Shown here: in pieces, positions 2,015 through 51,006 of the stretch | Layout of the letters: each line of letters begins with the position of its first letter | Numbering within the stretch: position 1 is the first letter of the stretch | DNA from: Lytechinus pictus | Taxonomy: Eukaryota | Reading direction: 5' to 3' | Assembly (NCBI RefSeq): GCF_037042905.1 | Contig: NC_087251.1 | Coordinates: 45,386,001-45,450,000 of the forward strand | DNA length: 64,000 nt | Position numbers and translations under genes: made by a program | Notes under the pieces: model-generated | Told to the model about the DNA's origin: nothing | The model's input: the letters and a program-made list of their open reading frames with translations, nothing else | The model's database searches: none

Positions 2015-3148
2015 TTATTTCTACATGTACACATGCACAGAAAAAAAATTTGTATTGTGACTCATTATAAAAAAAAATCATCCTCTGCATTCATCAACAT
2101 TTATGATTTCATGTAAAACAGTACTCAACTCTATAAAGAGTGAGAATAGTTCACATGTATTTCCAAAATTTGCCATCATTTTATTTCATGCATTTTTATT
2201 TAATGTAGTGATTTTAGACTTTCTGTAAATTAACCTCCTGAAAACAATTAAACAGATCAAAAGCTTGATATATTTATCAAATATTTATCTTAAATTTCTG
2301 AACGTCTGATCAAATATAAGTACAGCTCCCATATATACATGTATGTTTTTTTTTCGAATTCATGCATGAGGTGACAATACACGTTTTAGGTGATTAGAAG
2401 AACCCCTGCTTCTGCCTGTAACAAAAACTCAGTCTCATTCAATCTATCATATTTGACAATGGGATAAAGAATGTAAAAAAGACATCTGTAAAACCTTCAT
2501 GTGCCATACCTCATAATGATTATATCTTCATGAACAATATAGTAAATATGAAAGAGCAAGAGCAAGAGCAAGTTTTCATGTAGCTACGGCTATCAGTTAC
2601 CAGTTTATAAATTCCCTCTCTATTTCGCAATTTTGTAATTATTTTCCTTTCAATACATATCCTCTCTATCTAACCTCTTCCTTATCTTACTTCTACCAAC
2701 GACCAGTTTTTTAAAAAAATTAAATTTTTTTCTCATCCTCTCTCCTCAGCTTCATGACTAATGTGCTACTTAAACGCTAAGGCACAAATTCACCTTAAAA
2801 CATGAATAAATTATAATTAGTCTCATTTTCATTCATACAAACAAAATGATACATGTTATCTATTATAATACATAATCATCAACATAATCATCAATAGAAA
2901 GATATACCAAAGAGACAAGTCTAAACAGCTTAGTTTAGAATCTCACTGCTATATTAATGATATATTCTTGGTCAGATTTATAGAAATAACTCAAAATCCT
3001 TTAAAAGAGACACCATAGCAATTGAAGGATTAGATTCCTTGATTGAAAATAAATCCTTATCAGGAGATTCTTCTTGTAGGTGGATTTCACTGATAAATTT
3101 TGCTTTGAGCCAATCAGATGCAAGGATTTCAGAAGTTTCTAACAAATA

Positions 3149-38252: not shown

Positions 38253-38484
38253 CATGACATCATCATCATCATCATCACCACCATCATCATCATTCATCAC
38301 CATCATCATCATCATCATCATAATCTTCATCATCATCATCATCATCGTCATCGTCATCATCATCTTCATCATTCATCACCATCATCATCATCATCACAAC
38401 CACCATCACTGGCACCCCACCTCCATTATTAACATCATTATCATTAAATCACCAATATCATCATCATCACCATCATCATCATCA
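38098..38484. repeat. Compound (ATC/CAT)n microsatellite, left flank of the LTR element
   Basis: Degenerate ATC runs organised in a ~240-bp higher-order unit. Confidence 0.95.
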
Positions 38485-39901
38485 TGTTAGAGATTCAACC
38501 TTCCCCCTCAAGTGTATTCTTAATCCTTTGTATTATGTAATGCACAATAGTGCTCTGGAGTGAATAGTGAGTAGTTAGGCTCAGTGGTTAGGCTCCATCG
38601 CACTTAATTGTAATTAACATACTCAGCATTTTTGAACTGGGTGGGTTGCCTGTTTTAGCAGGAGTACCTCACTATCTGCACAGCTTTCACACAGGCAGGA
38701 CCTATTGGTCCTTGGGTCCAGTTGGGTGATTGGAAATGGAGAGTTAGAGTTTTAAGCCAAACACTTGCGCTGCAATAAAACTATATTCCAGAGTCAAGAT
38801 TCACTAAACCAACATGGAGGCCTGTTCCTGATTTCCTGCATTTAGTCATCCCAGTCAAACTGTAAGTTTAGTTGTTTTTTTGTCTCATTTATGTCTTGGA
38901 TTTTTATTATTCATTGAGAATAACAAAAGGTCAAAGAAAACCTCTAAAATGTGAGATGTGAAAGATGCTAACTATATTTTTTCATTAAAAGATTATTATA
39001 TGTCAACAAGAATTCCATCTGTTGAAATATTGAAAGGTCTTAAAATGATATTCTTAAAATATATAAGAAACTTTGCTTTTCCTAAGCATTAATGGATTAT
39101 GGAAAGTGTTTCTCATGTCATGGAATTTCTTTGTATGAAATGTTCGATTTAAGAGAAATGATGATGCTTTCTTTTCAATGACCGAATTATGTCATTCTAG
39201 ATTATACTTGAATACTTGAATTAAGCTAGGGAAATGATGTTTCCTTGAATATAGATAACCTATTATGTTATGGTTATTGTCCTATATGTATTCCGTAGAC
39301 TTTTTAAGTTTTGGAAATTGTTTAATTGTAGATGGGTTCTTCTTCATCTACATGGGAGTTCACCCAGTGGTTCTTCAGAAGTAAAGAAGTCTGGCAGCTC
39401 ATTTTCAGCCATTGACCAGACCAGTCAAGAGTAGGAGTAAAGGTTTATTAGAGGGCACCCACCAAGAACGGACAGCACCCTCGCTGACAAGATCTGATGA
39501 TGGTCGTTTATCATCGCTCGTTTTACTCATTCGTTACTCCTCATGAATTTTTAGCAGGAAGCAACAGTTGATTAAAGTGGGTTATTTTATTTATACCCTC
39601 CAGAGACTTAAAGCATTGTTTTGTAACCATATATATACTATTGTGTAACTTCCTTCGAGTTGAATATATTTTTGTTATTATTGTTTATCTTCTGTTTATT
39701 CTGGTCCACCTAAAACCAGAAGATTGAATTTAAATGTTGGAAGTTGAAGCCGGAAAACGAGTAATAAAACTAAACATATTTTATTTGTTGAACTAAATAA
39801 TAATTGTCTTCCATGGTCATTTATTTAGTTTTACAGTAGTGAGTTGAGAGAGTCACCATTCGACACAAGTTATGTCCATTTGAATTTATTCAGGTGTGAC
39901 A
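38485..39901 (+). repeat. 5' LTR
   Basis: TG...CA ends; direct repeat of 49406-50822 with the same length. Confidence 0.97.
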
Positions 39902-39905
39902 TTTT

Positions 39906-39944
39906 TGGGGGCTTGTCCGGGAGTCGAACCCGGGACCTCTCGCA
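39906..39944 (+). other. Extended primer-binding site complementary to the 3' half of tRNA-Pro
   Basis: TGGGGGCTTGTCCGGGAGTCGAACCCGGGACCTCTCGCA begins 4 nt after the 5' LTR. It matches the reverse complement of metazoan tRNA-Pro (recalled vertebrate sequence) at 36/39, including CCA. Confidence 0.9.
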
Positions 39945-40396
39945 GAATAAGGTTTCCTCTTATACTTCTTTATTACCAAAAGTGAAATAGATATTCTCAT
40001 TTTGTGAAGTACAAATTTGGAATTTTTCTACCTAAGAATATTCATAGATTGTTCTTGGACATTATTTTTGCTTTGTATAATGGGATATATTAGATATTAT
40101 CAAGTCAAAGCAGGATACTCCATAGAATGTAATTTCATGTGAATATTATTTACCGTTTTGATCGTTAATGCTACTTCTCTTTGAATGTTTTGTATTCTCT
40201 TCAATAATAGGAATAGTTGTGATTTGGTGATTAGAACGGAAATCGGATGCAAGTCTTCCAAGTCGGTTAAAGTGTTCTTGATTCTTTGGTAAGTAATCAT
40301 TTTGCGTAACTTTGCGCGCGTGTTTGGAAGAAGTTATTTTCTCAGATAGAATTTTAACCTTTTGATACAATAGTCCTGCCTGGTTAAGTTTTCATA

Positions 40397-43300
40397 ATGG
40401 ATTCTATTGATGAAAAATTGATTAACTTAGGTAAGGAGTTAGGATTAGTGGGTAAAGACTTGTTGGATTTCATTAAGGATAGAGAACAACAAGCAAGAGA
40501 AGAGAGAGCAACTGTAAGGGAAGATAGGAGACAGGAAATTGAGTTAAAGCAGTTAGAGGAAAATATATTAGATAAACAGTTGGCCTTAGTGCAGGCTAAT
40601 AAGGGTAATGAATCCCAGTTAGGAAATAACAGTATGCGAACCCATAGTTTGACAAAAGTCCCAAAGTTACCTCACTTTGACGAAAGTAGGGATAACATAG
40701 ATGCATACCTAGAGCGTTTTGAAAGGTACGCAAATAGTCAGAAATGGCAAAGTGATTGTTGGGCCATTAATTTAGGTGCACTTCTACAAGGGAAGGCTCT
40801 AGAAGTCTACAGTAGGTTGGCACCAGATGAAGCTGCTAAGTATTCAACTCTCAAGGACGCCCTCCTTCGTAGATACCAGATGTCTGCAGATGACTTCCGG
40901 AAGAAGTTCTACAGAGCAACTCCAGAGACAGGAGAGTCTGCTGGTCAGTTTATGGCGAGGTTAGAACATTACTTCGAGAGATGGGTAGATCTGACAGATA
41001 CAGCCAAATCATTTGAAGGGTTGAAAGATTTGATAATTAGACAGCAGTTCTTAGAGCAGATAAATCCAGGATTAGCTATTTACCTGAGAGAGCGTACTCC
41101 TCAGTCGACAAGGGAAATGACTGAAACTGCTCAGATTTATATTTCAGCACATGGTGGTCATTTCAAGGGTCCAAGAAAGGAAACCAAAGTAATGACACCT
41201 CATAAGTCTGAAACAAAGAGTGATGGTTTTCATAGGGAAAAGCCTAAGGGCCGAAAGCAAATTGGTCCTTGCTATCTGTGTGATCAAATGGGTCACCTTG
41301 CAAGAAATTGTAAGTCAAGTTCTAAATCAAAACTTGAGAAGGGTGGAAGTTTTGTAGATATTGGGTCCAAAACCAATAAACATAGGAAGTCTTCAGGTAA
41401 GACTAAATCTCATGATCCATGTCCTACGTGTTCTTCTTCTAAAGATTTAGGTGATGGCAGTGATATATCCCAGCTTGAGAGTGGGCTGTTTGTCATGATG
41501 TCTGCCTCAGGTATGGACCAGACAAGACCTACGAGGAAACAGAGGAAGAAACAGAAGAAGAAAATATCTGAGATGTGTGCGACTTGTAAAGGTAAGTTAC
41601 GCGAACTAATGCCTGTTACTGATGGTATTGTGAATTCTCAGACAGTTTCTGTTCTTAGAGACACAGGGTGTACTTGTGTTGTGATTCGGAAGAAACTAGT
41701 CAAGAAGGATCAGATGACTGGGAAATACAAGCTGTGTATTCTCATTGATGGTACGGTACGTTGGTATCCTACGGCTACGATACATATTGATTGTCCGTTT
41801 TTTGTAGGAACCGTTGTGGCGCTTTGTGTACGAGCACCACTGTTTGATGTTATTGTAGGAAATATCCAGAATGTTCTTCCTCCAGATGCGCCGAATCCAA
41901 ATTGGGGAATGCCGACATCAGGTAATGTTGTCACAGATAATGCTTTGTCTGAGGTGGGGATGGCTGTTGAGACGAGGTCACAGGTTAAAGCTGCTGAGAG
42001 AAAGCAAGCTCCTTTGAAGGTAATGTCTCCCATTCCAGAAGTTTCTCCACAGGATATACAGGAAGCACAGTTAGCAGATCCTACACTTAAGAAGGCAAGA
42101 GAACTTGCTGAGACCGAGGATGGTAGCAAAGAAGGTAAGAGAAATTATTTTTTCTTTCAGGATGGTTTGCTGCATAGAGTTTTCCAACCAAGTAGTGTTG
42201 TGAATGGAAACCAGGTTGTGCAACTTGTTGTGCCTAAGCCCTATCGGAAGGTTGTTATGAAACTGGCACATGAAGGTATTATGGGTGGACATCAGGGTGT
42301 CAAAAAGACTTCAGATAAGATAATGTTGAGTTTCTTTTGGCCAGGATTACAAGCAGATGTGAGTAGATTCTGCCAGTCGTGTGATATCTGTCAGAGAACT
42401 ATTAGCAAGGGAAGGGTCCCACGAGTTCCTCTTGGCAAGATGCCAATTATCGATGTTCCATTCAAGAGAATAGCTGTTGATTTGATAGGACCGATTCAAC
42501 CTATCACTTCCAGGAAGAATAGGTATATTCTTACAGTGGTTGATTGTGCTACTAGGTACCCAGAGGCGGTAGCCTTGCCCAACATAGAGACAACTACTGT
42601 TGCAGAGGCACTTGTTCAGATTTTCTCCAGAGTCGGTGTACCACAGGAGATTTTGTCAGATCGGGGCACTCAGTTCACCTCTGATCTTATGAAGGATATT
42701 GGGAAGTTGCTTTCAATAAAGCAAATGATGACGACCCCATATCACCCTGCCTGCAATGGGCTCGTTGAACGATTCAACGGCACGTTGAAGAAGATTTTAC
42801 GAAGAACTTGTTCAGACCGTCCCTCTGATTGGGATCGGTATCTCGCACCTATTTTGTTTGCTTACAGGGAGGCTCCTCAGGCTTCTATGGGTTTCTCACC
42901 TTTCGAACTCCTGTATGGACGCACTGTAAGAGGACCCTTAATGATTCTCAAGGAACTTTGGACGGGTAAGCAGCAGAATGAGGAGTTGAAATCAACCTAC
43001 CAGTATGTAGTCGAGCTGAAGGAACGACTGGAATCGACGTTAGAGGTTGCACAGCAAGAGCTGAGGAAGTCGATGGAAAGAAGTTCAAAGTACTACAACT
43101 CGAAGAGTAGGGAGAGAAGATTTCAGGTAGGAGATCAAGTTTTGTTGTTGTTACCTACTGAACACAACAAATTGTTAGTACAGTGGAAAGGTCCATTCAC
43201 TGTTGTGCACAAGCTCAGTGATCAGGATTATAGGTTAGACATTAATGGAAAACTTAAGACTTTCCATGCTAATTTGTTGAAACGTTATATCAGCAGAGAA

Positions 43301-44739
43301 GAAGACAGAGAAGAGTCTTTGACGGGTGATGAAGATCCAGCGGTTAGCGCTCAAGCTGTTGTCGTGACCGAGGATGATGACAGTGAAGCTAGTCCGATGT
43401 CAGGGAAGCTCAAGTCCATCGGTATTCATCTCCATCCACTTGAAGCAACTGAGACGACAGAAGATGTTTCAGTGTGCAAGAACTTATCTAAGGAGCAGAA
43501 GCGTGAGGTAAAGTCTTTGTTACTTGATTACAGGGAAGTCCTTACTGATCTTCCAGGAGAGTGTAAGTTGGGCACTCATTCAATCAAGCTGACTACAGAT
43601 GAGCCAGTACGTCAGAGACCATACCCAACTGCACATGCTCGCAAGAACACAATTGAGGAAGAAGTCAAGAAGATGCTCGAGATGGGAGTGATTGAGCAGT
43701 CTGAGTCTCCTTATTCATCGCCAATTGTGTTAGTTGGAAAAACTGATGGGACAAACCGTTTCTGCGTAGATTTTCGTCGATTGAATCGAGTGACAGTGTT
43801 CGACGCAGAACCCATTCCCAACAGTGATGAGATTTTCGCAAGTCTATCAGGATGTAAGTACTTCTCAAAAGTAGATCTATCTAAAGGGTACTGGCAGATT
43901 CCCTTATCCGAGGATGCTAAAGAGAAGACTGCATTCCGTAGTCCAAGTGGACTGTACCAGTTTTGCAGGATGCCTTTCGGTCTTGTTAATGCGCCGGCAA
44001 CTTTCAGTCGGGTAATGAGATCACTGCTCAAAGGTATGCCTTGCGTTCATAACTACTTGGATGACATACTCATCCATACTCGTACATGGGAGGAACATCT
44101 CCATGTTCTTGGAGAAGTCTTCAACAGACTTCGTTCAGCTGGTTTGACGGCACGGCCAAGTAAGTGTCAAATAGGATGTAACCAGATTGAATATCTAGGC
44201 CACATCGTGGGAGAGGACAAGCTTCTACCGATGCAAGACAAGGTGGAAAAGATTCGCAACGCTCCACCGCCAGAGACAAAGAAGCAGATGAGATCGTTCA
44301 TCGGGATGATAAACTACTACCGCAAGTTTATCCCTGATTTTGCATCAATTGCAGCTCCTCTGACAGACAAGACCAAAGGTCGTCAGCCCAACAAGCTTGT
44401 TTGGAGTGAATCAGACAAGAAGGCTTTTCAGCAGTTGAAAGACTGTTTGTCTACAGCTCCAGTTCTTTGCTTAGCTGATGTCGCTAAGCCCTTCATCATT
44501 CGCACTGATGCCTCGTCAACAGGTATCGGAGCAGTTCTCTTTCAAGAAAAAGAAGAAGGAAAACGCCCTGTTGCTTATGCCAGCAGAAAGTTACTTCCCA
44601 GGGAGCAAGCGTACTCTGCCATTGAACGCGAATGTCTCGCAATCGTTTGGGGAATTAGTAAATTTCAGGTATACCTAGATGGACGAGAGTTCATATTGGA
44701 GACAGATCACAAACCCCTCGTCTACCTTAACCAGTCTAA
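40397..44739 (+). CDS. Gag-Pol polyprotein, main part: SCAN-like capsid, CCHC knuckle, protease, integrase, RT and most of RNase H
   Basis: CYLCDQMGHLARNC knuckle; LRDTG protease; HHCC, DDE core and WKGPF integrase; FCVDFRRLN and YLDD RT; TDAS, ERECLA and TDHKPL RNase H. The ORF-track tail after 44739 reads into the inserted element. Confidence 0.95.
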
Positions 44740-45734
44740 TGGGGTGTTGCAAGAAAGTTACGTTGCAATTGATTGCAAATCGACTGCAACTTTGCAGCCG
44801 ATCCCGATCGACTGCAACTAGCAATCAATCGCCAATTTGCGTTGCAAGAAAAAGGCTTGCGATTGAACGCAAGTTGCAGCTGATTTGCAGACGATTTGCA
44901 GCTGTAAACAGGGTCTGCAGCACAAGACTAGCTGATGAAGCAAAATAATCCTTGCAATAATCGTGATTGTGGAAGAGAGTAAGTAGAAAATATTCATTTT
45001 TCACTGCTTTCTTTCTCCATTATGTATGTTTTCAGAGAATTTATATGTTTTAGACCTATGCCAGGGAAAAAATTATTTTGTAAAATGTGAAAATGTATCT
45101 TTATCGCCAGTCGAAATTTCACCTTCAAATTTTTTTTTACCACACAGTTTAAACCCAGTCCCACACTTGACTTTTTGTGTCGGTAATGCACTGTTGTACC
45201 AACAACACGGCAGGACATTCCCGGTGCAGTGCTGTTAAAAATCACCCTGAAGCAAGTAAATTTGTAGGCTCTAATTATGTATGAAACATCGAAAATGACC
45301 TTAAAAGATTATTATTGTTCATATTTGAAATGATTTTTAAGTTATATAAGTTTCAACGGCTAATAACCATCCAGTGAATCAGGCCAAAAAAAAACAACAA
45401 AGGTATAGGGGGTCTACATGTAGGCCTATATTATTAATTATTTTTAAAGATGTTATTGGGCTATTAAACCTATTGGCCACATCTGCCACATTCTTTGGGA
45501 AGTTTTAACATTGAACAGGGAGTTGCCCGCCCGGGGCTCTTTTTAAAATTTCTTACGGGTAGATTGCACAAGAGGTTCTTTGCAAGGACAGTCTATTTGT
45601 GTCGTTGATTTGTAATGATGTGCCGTATGAGTCACATTTTTAATATCCATCACATATAAATATAAAAAGATATAGGGCCTACATGTAAGCCTAAATAATT
45701 CTATTTTTTAGATTCAATATGTAGGTCTACTATG

Positions 45735-46155
45735 CCGGGGGGAAGGTACTTAGATTTGGTTTGGACAAAGGTGTGCGGCTGAAGGTTTGAAACCCGTACC
45801 CATATTTACAGGTCATTTCGGCTAAAAAGGTACCCATTATTAGGGATTCATTACAGGGGCGGATCCAGGATTTCCACAAGGGGGGGGGGGCACATTTTCG
45901 CCTGGAAAACTTGACAAGCAAAAAAAAAAGAAAAAAGTTATCGCCCAAAATGTAAGGTAATTTTGTATTTGCACCAAAGACAAGAGTAGAATATGGACCC
46001 ATGTTTAAGGCCAGTATCTAAAAATTGGGCCATGTTTAGGGATTTTCCAGCATAAAATCATACCCCATGTTTAGGGATTTCTTCCAAAAAGGCAACCCAT
46101 TCCAGCGGCACATCCCCATATGCATTATTTTGTGAGTCCCCCCCCCCCCCCCGGG
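45735..46155. mobile_element. CC(G)n...(C)nGG-ended MITE inside the Harbinger-like element, with a CAGGGGCGGATCCAGG-family fragment inside it
   Basis: Ends CCGGGGGGAAGGTACT and GAGTCCCC...CCGGG. The segment from 45854 matches the minus-strand element ending at 30160. Confidence 0.6.
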
Positions 46156-48172
46156 CTACTATTTAACTGACTCTAGTCTTAACTTGATTTTTATGCAAGC
46201 ACATGAGGTGCTATATAGATGACAGATTTTTTTTCACTTTAAATTGTTTAATGGATGATTACAATGCTTTTCCAGGTGCTTACAGTAAAAGGGTGTCTCA
46301 TATGGTGCATCATTATCATTTTATTAATATTGAATGCATAATCATGATTTTTTTTTTACATCCTTTTACATCAAGCACAATACTCGGGGGGGGGGGGGCA
46401 TATGGTCCCCCTTCACATTTTTCAGAATAAATCTGCAACTCAAAATTTTATTACCGCACCACTGACTGGCGTTTTACTTTCAAGTCTCGCGCAACTTTTG
46501 AGACCAAATTTGCAATTCCCAGGTACAGGGTCAGGAAATTTTGCAACATTGTGTTTGTTTAAGTACATGTCAGACAAAAACATGATTACATGTAAAAAGT
46601 TAATTGGGTAATTTTTTTTATTGACAATAGTAATTTAATGTCACTGATGAACTTTGTCTTGAAAATAACAACAACAAAAAATACATTTAAGAAGTTAAGA
46701 AAAAATATTAAAAAAAAAACATGAAAGGATTTTTTTTTATACCAGATTTTTTAAAGTAAAGTTGTTAGGAATGCTCTTGAAAGGAATATGTACACCAAAG
46801 TTTAGCATTCTATTACAAGCTTTTTTTAGTAAATTAAAGCAAAAGGTATGATTCATAATTTTCTTATTGCGCCGCCCATAGCTGAGGAACCATAGTACCC
46901 CTCCCCAGGACAGAAGTGACTTTAATCAAAACACCCTGGGACTACTATAATGATTAACACACTGGCAACTGAGCTTAACTTGTATATTAATTTCATGAAT
47001 ATGTTTTATCTCTTTGCTTTTTGCTTTTAATTGCTTACTACAGTTATGACAAGGAAGTCTGGAATAAACCGAACCACCATAACTGTGTCTGCTACCATGT
47101 GTGTTCTTGCAACCAGCTGATTGATTCATTTTATCAACTCTTGAATGGTAGGTTGCATGTAAACTGTATTATTATTAATAATTCACCATGATTGTAATGC
47201 GGATGGGGGTGAAATCTGTACACATTGACCAAAGGATAATGCAAAATGAAAAAAAGGCAAACACAAATCTCTATCTTGACTGGACTTCACAGCAATGAAG
47301 ACATCCCATTGATGGGGGGGGGGGGAGGGGGCGGTTGTTGTGCTCATCCAAGGTGTACTGTATGAAAGTGTGTATTTTGCTTTCATTGATTTAATTTATT
47401 GCATATTTTAATTTCCATGATTCATTTATTTGGGGAAAAACAATCAGTTCACACTTTTTTAGATTACATCATGGCAAATTGCCAATTACTATGGTCTCAG
47501 GAGTAAGCCACTTTCCCTCTATCTTATCATCATGTCGGTGCAAACAACGCCCTTACCAGCAGGCATAGGGGCATTTCTGCACCAATGGGGTGCACAAAAA
47601 TGTTTTGCTAAGGGCGTTTTTACACTGAAAGGACAAAATTTGAACTAACCCAAGCTACATGTATGTATAGTTATGGGCTTGCATTATTTCCTATATTATT
47701 ATTTTTTTATGGACAGGTTGATTATCAGAACTGAATTCAGAGCTGCTCCTGTCTGTAGTAAGATCATTTAGAGTGGACTTCAGAATGAGGGCGTTGCTTG
47801 TTTAAAATCTTCACTCCATGAAGCTCTCCAAATTCATCTCAAATTAGACTGCTTCTGGAAACCAGATTTGTTCCTTCAAGCAGAGACGCTTGTGGCTTTC
47901 CTGACTGGACTTCTATGGATTCTTCATGCCAACCTTAAGGACTGTGGTCTTCTGCATGATACGTCAATTTCAAACAAGACATTCTGTGGTGAAACACTTG
48001 ATGTAGATGATATGAAATTTTATTTCATATAACTGAATCTCAGAAGTAATTCCTCGGGAGCAAGAAACATTGAAAAATAAAAATAAAAGGTCCATCAATA
48101 TTGAATGTCTTGAGCAGTGTTCTTTTTTTTGTGCACAGATCAATGGATCTTTTCAAGTCCAAGCAGCCGAAG

Positions 48173-48303
48173 CAGGGATGTAGTCAATGCTGACCTCGAG
48201 GCAACATTTTGCTGGCCTTGGTCCGAGTCACTGTACAGAATCTATGGGAAGTTCTCTCAAGCTGCCTCATGACTCGGAAGAATCAGCCTCGACCTCATCC
48301 CTG
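48173..48303. mobile_element. Small hAT-like MITE inside the Harbinger-like element
   Basis: TIR CAGGGATG...CATCCCTG; no TSD recognised. Confidence 0.5.
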
Positions 48304-49169
48304 TATGCAAGTGTGATATATATCTACGATGCAATCTTATGATTAAAGAGAGCTTCAGATTTTGAAGTGTAGCAATCTCCTGAAATGTATGTTTTATTTG
48401 AAAATCAAACTAAAATAACTTAATTGGGCATGTTATTCATTATGATATGTATGAATGAAAGCATTTAAGCAATTTAGTGCTCTTGCAAAATAAATTCTGA
48501 GTTGTATTTACTGCAAACCCTCAGATATATTTATAAGCATTTGCCAGTGCATGAAGTGTTTTAATAAAGAGTGGCTTTTGTGCCTATGGAGAGTTATTAT
48601 TTCTTCAACATTTCTTCATACAAATTATTTCAGAAATCACAATTTGAATATTCCATGACCTCTGATAACAAGAGCAGAATATTTTTGGTGATTGACACAC
48701 TTTAAAATGATATTAGGAGAGAATGTACTGAAATTGTGTGAAAATAATGGCATAATTGCTGAAGAGGCCTATAAAGATTGAAAATAACATTATTTCAAGT
48801 TTTTCTTGAAAAAAACCCATGGAAAATTGAAAATGGCATAATTTACACAAGTTTTCAAAACAAAATACAAAAAAAAAAATTTTGCAGAATTTTTAGTACA
48901 CAAGCCTATGGACAATCAATTGAACGTAAATCGAACGCAAATTTTGCGCGTCCTCCAAAATCTCACATAAGTTACGTTCGATTTGCAATCAATCGCAAAG
49001 CTTGCGCTTGATCTACGTTCAATTGATCAAACGCAACTTCTTCTTGCAACAGGATTGAAAGTAACTTGCGTTCAATTGCAGATTTGCGTTTAATCGGAGG
49101 ACTTACGCTCAATTTTGGGAGTTGCGTTCGATTTGCGTTCAATCGCAAGTTTCTTGCAACACCCCATAA

Positions 49170-49287
49170 GTCGACTAATAGTAGAATCATGAGGTGGGCT
49201 TTATCTCTCCAACCTTACAGGTTCCATATTGAAGCTATACCAGGTTCGGAGAATGTTGGCGCGGATTTTCTAAGCAGGGCAGTTTGA
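49170..49287 (+). CDS. Displaced C-terminus of Pol (end of RNase H)
   Basis: STNSRIMRWALSLQPYRFHIEAIPGSENVGADFLSRAV*. It joins in frame to ...LVYLNQSK once the insert and one TAA are removed, giving 1486 aa. Confidence 0.93.
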
Positions 49288-49392
49288 GTTTAAATTAAGT
49301 TTAAGTAAAGCAAGAGAGCTTAGATTTATTTCTATGTCAATCCACTTTTGGGGATAGATTGAATATTTAATGTAAATATGAAATATTTTCTT

Positions 49393-49402
49393 AAGGAGGG
49401 GG
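49393..49402 (+). other. Polypurine tract
   Basis: AAGGAGGGGG ends 3 nt before the 3' LTR. Confidence 0.85.
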
Positions 49403-49405
49403 TGA

Positions 49406-50822
49406 TGTTAGAGATTCAACCTTCCCCCTCAAGTGTATTCTTAATCCTTTGTATTATGTAATGCACAATAGTGCTCTGGAGTGAATAGTGAGTAGTTAGG
49501 CTCAGTGGTTAGGCTCCATCGCACTTAATTGTAATTAACATACTCAGCATTTTTGAACTGGGTGGGTTGCCTGTTTTAGCAGGAGTACCTCACTATCTGC
49601 ACAGCTTTCACACAGGCAGGACCTATTGGTCCTTGGGTCCAGTTGGGTGATTGGAAATGGAGAGTTAGAGTTTTAAGCCAAACACTTGCGCTGCAATAAA
49701 ACTATATTCCAGAGTCAAGATTCACTAAACCAACATGGAGGCCTGTTCCTGATTTCCTGCATTTAGTCATCCCAGTCAAACTGTAAGTTTAGTTGTTTTT
49801 TTGTCTCATTTATGTCTTGGATTTTTATTATTCATTGAGAATAACAAAAGGTCAAAGAAAACCTCTAAAATGTGAGATGTGAAAGATGCTAACTATATTT
49901 TTTCATTAAAAGATTATTATATGTCAACAAGAATTCCATCTGTTGAAATATTGAAAGGTCTTAAAATGATATTCTTAAAATATATAAGAAACTTTGCTTT
50001 TCCTAAGCATTAATGGATTATGGAAAGTGTTTCTCATGTCATGGAATTTCTTTGTATGAAATGTTCGATTTAAGAGAAATGATGATGCTTTCTTTTCAAT
50101 GACCGAATTATGTCATTCTAGATTATACTTGAATACTTGAATTAAGCTAGGGAAATGATGTTTCCTTGAATATAGATAACCTATTATGTTATGGTTATTG
50201 TCCTATATGTATTCCGTAGACTTTTTAAGTTTTGGAAATTGTTTAATTGTAGATGGGTTCTTCTTCATCTACATGGGAGTTCACCCAGTGGTTCTTCAGA
50301 AGTAAAGAAGTCTGGCAGCTCATTTTCAGCCATTGACCAGACCAGTCAAGAGTAGGAGTAAAGGTTTATTAGAGGGCACCCACCAAGAACGGACAGCACC
50401 CTCGCTGACAAGATCTGATGATGGTCGTTTATCATCGCTCGTTTTACTCATTCGTTACTCCTCATGAATTTTTAGCAGGAAGCAACAGTTGATTAAAGTG
50501 GGTTATTTTATTTATACCCTCCAGAGACTTAAAGCATTGTTTTGTAACCATATATATACTATTGTGTAACTTCCTTCGAGTTGAATATATTTTTGTTATT
50601 ATTGTTTATCTTCTGTTTATTCTGGTCCACCTAAAACCAGAAGATTGAATTTAAATGTTGGAAGTTGAAGCCGGAAAACGAGTAATAAAACTAAACATAT
50701 TTTATTTGTTGAACTAAATAATAATTGTCTTCCATGGTCATTTATTTAGTTTTACAGTAGTGAGTTGAGAGAGTCACCATTCGACACAAGTTATGTCCAT
50801 TTGAATTTATTCAGGTGTGACA
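49406..50822 (+). repeat. 3' LTR
   Basis: Direct repeat of 38485-39901. Confidence 0.97.
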
Positions 50823-50974
50823 ATCATCATCATCATCATAATCTTCATCATCATCATCATCATCGTCATCGTCATCATCATCTTCATCATTCATCACCAT
50901 CATCATCATCATCACAACCACCATCACTGGCACCCCACCTCCATTATTAACATCATTATCATTAAATCACCAAT

Positions 50975-51006
<32 letters not shown>

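Follow-up and report, generated by a model that had tools for sequence, protein, structure and literature searches.

Why would an LTR retrotransposon match its tRNA primer over 39 nt, exactly the 3' half of the molecule? The window, the whole stretch of 64,000 nt of Lytechinus pictus DNA that we analyzed, raises this question at positions 39906–39944 (the site and the features of its element lie on the plus strand). Here TGG is followed by 36 nt, together complementary to positions 38–76 of the host tRNA-Pro(AGG/CGG), CCA included, at 39 of 39 positions. The initial annotation had predicted a primer-binding site (PBS) of this span from a 36/39 match to a vertebrate tRNA-Pro; comparison with the species' own tRNA-Pro genes, as called by ARAGORN, made the match exact, and the reverse complement of the host AGG gene plus CCA is identical to the 39-nt site. 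The predicted end at position 38 was borne out as well. Opposite G37 the element has a G where a C is required, so complementarity stops exactly at position 38, one nucleotide before G37, and this boundary recurs across families. Both m1A58 and m1G37 are modifications that we assume to be present in tRNA-Pro of this species.

The site can be divided into three segments. The first, at 39906–39923, is a canonical 18-nt PBS complementary to tRNA-Pro 76–59 (CCA, discriminator, 3' strand of the acceptor stem, 3' strand of the T stem, and nucleotides 60 and 59). It lies 4 nt (TTTT, 39902–39905) 3' of the 5' LTR, and, with TGG a few nucleotides past the LTR and the complement of a host tRNA 3' end plus CCA, it has the layout of a standard tRNA-primed PBS. 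Because it begins with the CCA complement, it is not an internal-stretch PBS of the half-tRNA (copia/Ty5-type) kind. The second segment, a 10-nt T-arm filler at 39924–39933, is the complement of tRNA-Pro 58–49; in sister families an unrelated spacer of 24–208 nt is found there. The third, at 39934–39944, is an 11-nt box, GACCTCTCGCA, the complement of tRNA-Pro 48–38, which stands apart from the PBS in six families with 18-nt PBSs. A second template segment that matches a part of the primer other than the 3'-terminal 18 nt, as in a bipartite PBS, is thus present, fused to the first in the window and separate from it in those six families.

Since the site includes CCA, its source was a mature tRNA rather than a tRNA gene or a SINE head. 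We also rejected a tRNA gene, pseudogene, or SINE head as the identity of the site itself: neither ARAGORN nor Rfam reported a tRNA gene in the window (the only Rfam match was an 18-nt T-arm stretch assigned to a tmRNA family, E 0.01), the CCA is present, and in several families the site follows the LTR at an equivalent place. The concern, raised in the initial annotation, that a SINE head might match better did not materialize. ARAGORN, run on 10 fetched loci of the same genome, called 13 tRNA-Pro genes in eight of them (6 AGG, 4 CGG, and 3 TGG); positions 47 and 59 set the TGG isodecoder apart. Our pattern searches covered the 812-Mb assembly, in which the 33-nt core of the site, in tRNA sense and with at most three mismatches, matched 95 places, many of them clustered tRNA genes judging by their flanks. 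One cluster of about 50 kb holds several dozen tRNA-Pro(TGG) genes (G000 C12:26776919-26829909), and smaller AGG/CGG/TGG clusters lie on C3, C14, and C18. The leader downstream of the site (39945–40387) contains no other tRNA-complementary run of at least 9 nt. Upstream of the PBS, a scan of 200 nt turned up tRNA-complementary or tRNA-like runs of at least 8 nt at one of eight loci (a single run), with none in common. RNA folding predicted no structure at the PBS region (z –0.86) or in the spacers of three two-part families (z +0.7 to +1.5).

The element and its family

The 5' LTR (TGTTAGAG...GTGTGACA) spans 38485–39901, its start being set from sibling and polypurine-tract junctions, and the 3' LTR spans 49406–50822; the pair is 100% identical over 1417–1418 nt by blastn (38484/5–39901 vs 49405/6–50822). 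After the leader comes a gag-pol open frame of 1477 aa (40388–44821), in which Pfam recognized a SCAN-like capsid, CCHC, integrase (615–967), RT (1118–1274), and RNase H (1339–1451). The pol domains RVT_1, RT_RNaseH_2, rve, and Integrase_H2C2 are those of a gypsy-type RT, RNase H, and integrase, and the integrase precedes the RT, which is the Gmr1-type order implied in the initial annotation. The frame is followed by about 4.5 kb (44822–49392) with no frame longer than 104 aa, which is extra relative to most sibling copies, and then by the polypurine tract AAGGAGGGGGTGA (49393–49405), with the same junction in L007. This stretch from the pol stop to the polypurine tract may be a nested insertion. 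With its LTR pair, a PBS following the 5' LTR, as well as a polypurine tract ahead of the 3' LTR, the element has the organization of an LTR retrotransposon, and by its domains and integrase-before-RT order we class it as a young Gmr1-like Ty3/gypsy element. Retrotransposons of this kind were reportedly described by Butler in 2001 and by Goodwin and Poulter in 2002. A gypsy-type RT, RNase H, and integrase, with the integrase upstream of the RT, are features shared with the Gmr1-like Ty3/gypsy elements as far as these are described in PMC8220671. The literature we searched held no report of a 39-nt PBS or a 38–48 box in Gmr1-like elements; the original Gmr1 papers lay outside that search and may contain an earlier description.

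The window family comprises 11 copies that are 98.6–99.7% identical around the PBS (10 siblings, 701 nt) and is therefore too young to reveal constraint. Five of the seven testable sibling pairs have 5-bp target duplications, which, together with the copy number, indicates that the contiguous site does not prevent spread. From the PBS to the end of the 3' LTR, the window element measures about 10.9 kb and five of nine sibling pairs about 6.4 kb; the others measure 5.5–6.9 kb (three) and 12.2 kb (one). One sibling, L010, has the base of the TGG isodecoder at position 59 but not at 47, a pattern with a chance of coincidence of about 5% by rough estimate. This fits an ordinary stop at A58, with only 18 nt copied from the primer in that event.

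Two features of the surroundings stand out. The 5' flank, an ATC-rich minisatellite (38305–38484), is 100% identical by blastn to the 3' flank (50823–51002), so that the window element sits within a perfect direct duplication of 180–181 nt (38305–38485 = 50823–51003), compared with the 5-bp duplications of its siblings; it could stem from atypical integration or repair, or be an artifact of assembly. Elsewhere, window-family LTR ends occur four times on C10, about 14.7 kb apart (G000 C10:33182919-33227161), and in L007 a polypurine tract precedes the LTR upstream of the PBS. The C10 spacing and the order in L007 point to tandem arrays with common LTRs.

Contiguous and two-part sites in related families

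The 39-nt site is common to four autonomous families (that of the window, L041/L063, L036/L061, and L039/L062), and at other loci it adjoins different LTR ends. The pol sequences of the other three are collinear with that of the window and 80–87% (L063), 37–60% (L061), and 37–57% (L062) identical to it. The 21-nt extension past the canonical PBS was identical at 21 of 21 positions in all six pairwise comparisons of the four families, whereas the 60 nt on each side of the site were identical at a fraction of 0.48–0.67, the shuffled mean being 0.57. The extension was therefore kept while its surroundings changed.

A census of the genome with a pattern of the exact 18-nt PBS, 16 unspecified nt, and a non-G base yielded 35 sites; requiring the exact 18 nt biases this census toward intact sites. 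Fifteen of them reach at least position 42, two are partial (to 43 and 47), and 18 end at 18 nt, just before A58, thus keeping to the PBS length of at most 18 nt that the window site exceeds. A second pattern, the 18-nt PBS with ACA 0–6 nt upstream, gave 38 sites. All five of the non-extended families that we fetched (L067–L071) have GTGACA LTR ends and a pol or gag sequence collinear with that of the window at 31–57% identity, which makes them Gmr1-like as well. Sister families with 18-nt PBSs rule out the 39-nt extension as a property of Gmr1-like RTs across the clade.

The history of the extension appears in trees built from elements of this genome only. One subclade of the RT tree consists of three 18-nt families and the other of the four 39-nt families together with the 18-nt family L068, and at least two changes between the 18-nt and 39-nt states are required. 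The gag tree places L067 next to L061 and L062. At the three loci of the L067 family the 18-nt PBS is perfect, the extension has decayed (13/21 identical in a gapped alignment, with many CpG-type changes), and the same leader as in L062 follows. In the comparison across copies and families that the initial annotation had proposed, the extension held for the four families with the 39-nt site, and did not hold for about half of the tRNA-Pro sites, which stop at 18 nt, or for L067, where it decayed.

We also searched for long PBSs complementary to other tRNAs behind TGACA LTR ends. This gave 20 matches, 18 of them to tRNA-Pro, compared with three in the control. One of the remaining two looks like chance, and the other, L072 (C18:9240072), is a full-length tRNA-like match. 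There (G000 C18:9240027-9240101), TGACAT and TGG are followed by a whole tRNA-like complement of about 72 nt that ARAGORN passed over; possible origins are strong-stop copying of a complete tRNA lacking modifications, a retro-pseudogene, and a SINE head. The primer is tRNA-Pro in every family studied here, so there is no primer variation to set beside the box sequence. A viral contig collection contained no match to the site pattern and no pol relative. One contig of a metagenome contig collection, L082, carries a 39-nt site of equal extent. In this contig, from another organism, an LTR-like end (...GTTACA) and TCT precede the site (positions 2449–2487, minus strand), which has four differences, in the acceptor stem and T-loop, and also stops at 38; the 2.4 kb downstream contain no recognizable gag or pol.

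The last 11 nt of the site turned up in families with 18-nt PBSs when we scanned their leaders for complementarity to the whole tRNA. In six such families the box lies 25–209 nt downstream of the PBS. It matches at 11/11 in the L071 family (5/5 loci, +121 to +125 after the PBS), L091/L099 (+60), L094/L101 (+64, and 13/13 with two more G), and L097/L102 (+25), and at 10/11 in the L068 family (3/3 loci, +201 to +209) and L092/L100 (+149). Shuffled leaders reached these scores 0–1 times per 500–2000 trials. In five of the six families the last tRNA position covered by the box is 38; in the L068 family it is 37. Weak matches were seen in the L069 family (8/11 without gaps, 10/11 once a single gap is allowed, and 7/11 at a second locus) and in L093/L106 (8/11), and no box was present in the 125–600 nt of leader examined in the L070 family, L095/L103, L096/L104, and L098/L105. 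The 13 non-contiguous families therefore comprise six with the box, two with a weak match, four without it, and one, L067, with a decayed extension; the families that lack the box or have let the extension decay indicate that it is dispensable for some lineages. By gag, L099 is related to the window family, L100 to the L068 family, and L101 to the L061 family; L102 has no detectable gag. In the contiguous family L041/L063 (C8:3462052 onward), the leader contains tandem repeats of about 36–40 nt, each with a box at its end, amounting to two more exact copies and two at 9/10.

Conversions and aberrant copies of the tRNA

Two pairs of close relatives differ in the form of the site. The two-part element L101 and the contiguous element L061 are 98.5% identical over 1357 nt (98.3% in gag) and share the LTR end, the 18 nt, the 13-nt box region, and the leader. 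The spacer of L101, about 61 nt long, has as its counterpart in L061 an 8-nt T-arm copy, which brings the site to the full 39 nt. Similarly, L046 and L068 are 98.5% identical from the box onward, and in L046 a T-arm copy replaces 212 nt of the L068 leader, with a 9-nt microhomology across the junction. The box of L046 has the tRNA's own base at the position where the L068 family is mismatched. The inserted letters are missing from the two-part relatives, and their nearest source would be the primer tRNA on minus-strand DNA, from which we infer read-through past A58 followed by annealing to the box. Parsimony suggests that in both conversions the change ran from the two-part to the fused form.

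Copies of the tRNA also occur in aberrant elements, where they end at position 47 (L073), 46 (L075), and 43 (a second site in L062). In L062 (4860–4930; G000 C6:18095773-18095807) the pol stop and a tract resembling a polypurine tract are not followed by a 3' LTR; in its place are a second tRNA-Pro complement (76 to 43) and then unrelated DNA. In L077 (C12:8929725) and L080 (C5:55589799) a tRNA copy to about 41–42 is followed by a further, incomplete PBS, after which comes the leader; read-through strong-stop DNA that rejoined close to where the PBS starts would give such a layout. The PBS of L077 matches another tRNA-Pro isodecoder, for which there is a gene in L078. In L059/L066 the copy reaches 37 and an RNase H fragment follows. 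In a short-LTR family the copy runs past 38, to 32 in L055/L065 (C16:23012957) and, in decayed form, to the D-loop in L074 (C8:3228988). Position 34 is G in both L055 and L074. Among 56 tRNA-Pro anticodon arms in the genome, 39 are TGG, 12 AGG, 5 CGG, and none GGG, so that a G34 fits inosine 34 copied as G. The aberrant copies look like failed versions of the read-through and fusion event. Together with the two T-arm conversions, these genomic fossils, copied to 47, 46, 43, 41, 32, or further, lend support to the part of the initial annotation that had the RT reading through A58.

A different rearrangement was found in L045/L064 (G000 C13:26740690-26741130), where an LTR of about 189 nt (TGTCA...TGACA), the 39-nt site, and a single A are followed by an inverted copy of the LTR. 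The palindrome arms are 198 nt long and 99% identical, 9 nt of flank included, with the tRNA half at the center. An inverted duplication that took place in DNA is the likeliest origin.

Origin and role of the extended site

The initial annotation had offered two explanations for the length of the site, a stop of the RT at m1G37 or priming by a 3' tRNA half. That choice misses the separate, conserved box of the last 11 nt in sister families with 18-nt PBSs, which argues for an extended, two-part primer–template pairing of which the 39-nt site is the fused form. Our preferred reading, to which we assign a probability of roughly 60% on the sequence comparisons above, is that the 39-nt site arose as the fused form of a two-part tRNA-Pro binding site when strong-stop synthesis read through past A58 onto the box. 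During initiation, the box would pair with the anticodon stem's 3' strand in the primer and with the variable loop, and this pairing would stabilize or shape the initiation complex as happens through the second segment of the PBS in Ty1 and Ty3 and through extended contacts in HIV-1. Pairing would stop at U38 because G37, expected to be m1G, could neither pair nor be passed by the RT, and because the anticodon varies between isoacceptors. Fusion would follow when plus-strand strong-stop DNA copied the tRNA still attached to minus-strand DNA past A58 and its 3' end annealed to the box rather than to the PBS; such annealing would delete the spacer and leave the T-arm copy in place. The fused site presumably still functions, given that the window family spread while carrying it. 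Box pairing alone is no explanation for the perfect 10-nt T-arm filler in old lineages. We also count against this reading the non-contiguous families with no box, a weak match, or a decayed extension, and the sibling L010, in which apparently no more than 18 nt were copied.

The modifications invoked here are described in the literature: m1G37 in tRNAs for CNN codons other than CAN, and m1A58 in primer tRNAs including tRNA-Pro, with strong-stop products in vitro ending at 58, 55, 54, and 37 (PMC13191261). In having a short PBS for the tRNA 3' end and a second template segment for the same tRNA, the elements resemble Ty1 and Ty3, whose PBSs are bipartite, and the window element is, like Ty3, of the Ty3/gypsy type. 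They differ in their primer, tRNA-Pro here and initiator tRNA-Met there; in the part of it that is matched, 38–48 (anticodon-stem 3' strand and variable loop) as opposed to the T and D arms; and in the placement of the second segment, 25–209 nt downstream or fused into a 39-nt duplex, with conservation as the basis for the pairing proposed here. The comparison also holds a point that we counted against the two-part reading, namely that Ty1 and Ty3 do not inherit sequence from the primer (all from PMC5371799). The extended contacts between HIV-1 and tRNA-Lys3 involve a 7-nt partner upstream of the PBS, with a disputed role, whereas the partner here is 11–13 nt long, lies downstream, and is contiguous with the PBS in some families (PMC3185550).

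How far could the blocking modifications account for the site by themselves? The PBS may have been set purely by RT stops, the extension and box having no part in initiation, with strong-stop DNA blocked at m1G37 being rescued by a matching acceptor. Read-through fossils are common, the match stops at 38, right next to G37, and a stop at position 37 is known in vitro (PMC13191261). A close parallel would be the second RT-stop site proposed for HIV-1, whose complementarity reaches the second stop at m5Um54: there the template stays complementary to the tRNA beyond 18 nt, as far as the nucleotide preceding the next RT block, which leaves read-through DNA usable (PMC8599865, PMC13191261), and the same would hold here with m1G37 as the presumed block. 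The extension is 4 nt in HIV-1, compared with 21 nt here, into the anticodon loop and with assumed modifications (PMC8599865). We consider rescue without pairing an unlikely account of the whole pattern because a strong-stop DNA landing on the box yields fused, not two-part, progeny, and rescue alone therefore cannot keep the box in six diverged lineages; for this reason we ranked pairing first.

The alternative carried over from the initial annotation is that the primer is a 3' half of tRNA-Pro (38–76) cut in the anticodon loop, which would pair over its whole length, either contiguously or through PBS plus box, and off whose 5' end plus-strand copying would run. Gypsy-type elements would then select an anticodon-cleaved 3' half, and PBS and box would read it end to end. 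The complementarity does correspond to exactly a 3' half, in the fused as well as the two-part form, and positions 38–48 would be free to pair in a half. A cut between G37 and U38, however, is not known as the usual anticodon-nuclease site, and copies past 38 (to 32 in L055, to the D-loop in L074, and to 37 in L046, L059, and the L068 box) required longer templates in those events. Half-tRNA primers are known, but as 5' halves and in Ty1/copia elements only; elements of this kind (copia, Ty5, and the Osser, Bryco, and Bianca lineages of plants) share with the window site a complementarity ending in the anticodon loop, and Bianca also a trace of inosine 34 in the element sequence. Their primers use a 5' half with a 3' end made by cleavage, whereas the window site matches the natural CCA end and the 3' half (PMC6317226, PMC5371799). 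To this reading we give little credence; if it were true, 3'-half priming would be the first such mode and would tie retrotransposon replication to tRNA cleavage. Still less credible, and in our view very improbable, is a neutral relic of one or a few accidental read-through insertions inherited without function: the L067 family does keep spreading with a decaying extension, and window-family copies are too young for visible constraint, but a 21/21 extension in four families with change-saturated flanks and a separate box at 10–11/11 in six families argue against it.

The fused form of a two-part site, our favored reading, bears on a broader question. Knowledge of extended primer–template contacts comes from a few laboratory models (Ty1, Ty3, HIV-1, and avian viruses), and the role of these contacts is debated. 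One genome, one clade, and one tRNA here provide a natural series of two-part sites with varied spacing, fused sites, decayed sites, and recent conversions. This series makes it possible to test how important pairing with primer positions 38–48 is, how often strong-stop DNA reads through past A58 in vivo, and whether pair-blocking methylations at A58 and G37 set the possible lengths of a PBS. The aberrant copies can be read as fossil primer-extension stops on the tRNA, with an inosine-34 signature, and the 39-nt site also offers a long target for 3' tRNA fragments.

RNA reads from three runs (about 6% of each was read) that fell on a 2.2-kb stretch numbered 12, 1, and 5, too few for the window family. 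In run X9, the source of five reads covering the PBS (window position 39924) was a short-LTR family copy rather than the window element. Opposite A58 each of these reads has C instead of T, and a pattern search of the assembly found no such copy; this base might stem from misincorporation at m1A58 preserved as a fossil, from a copy that is polymorphic, or from editing.
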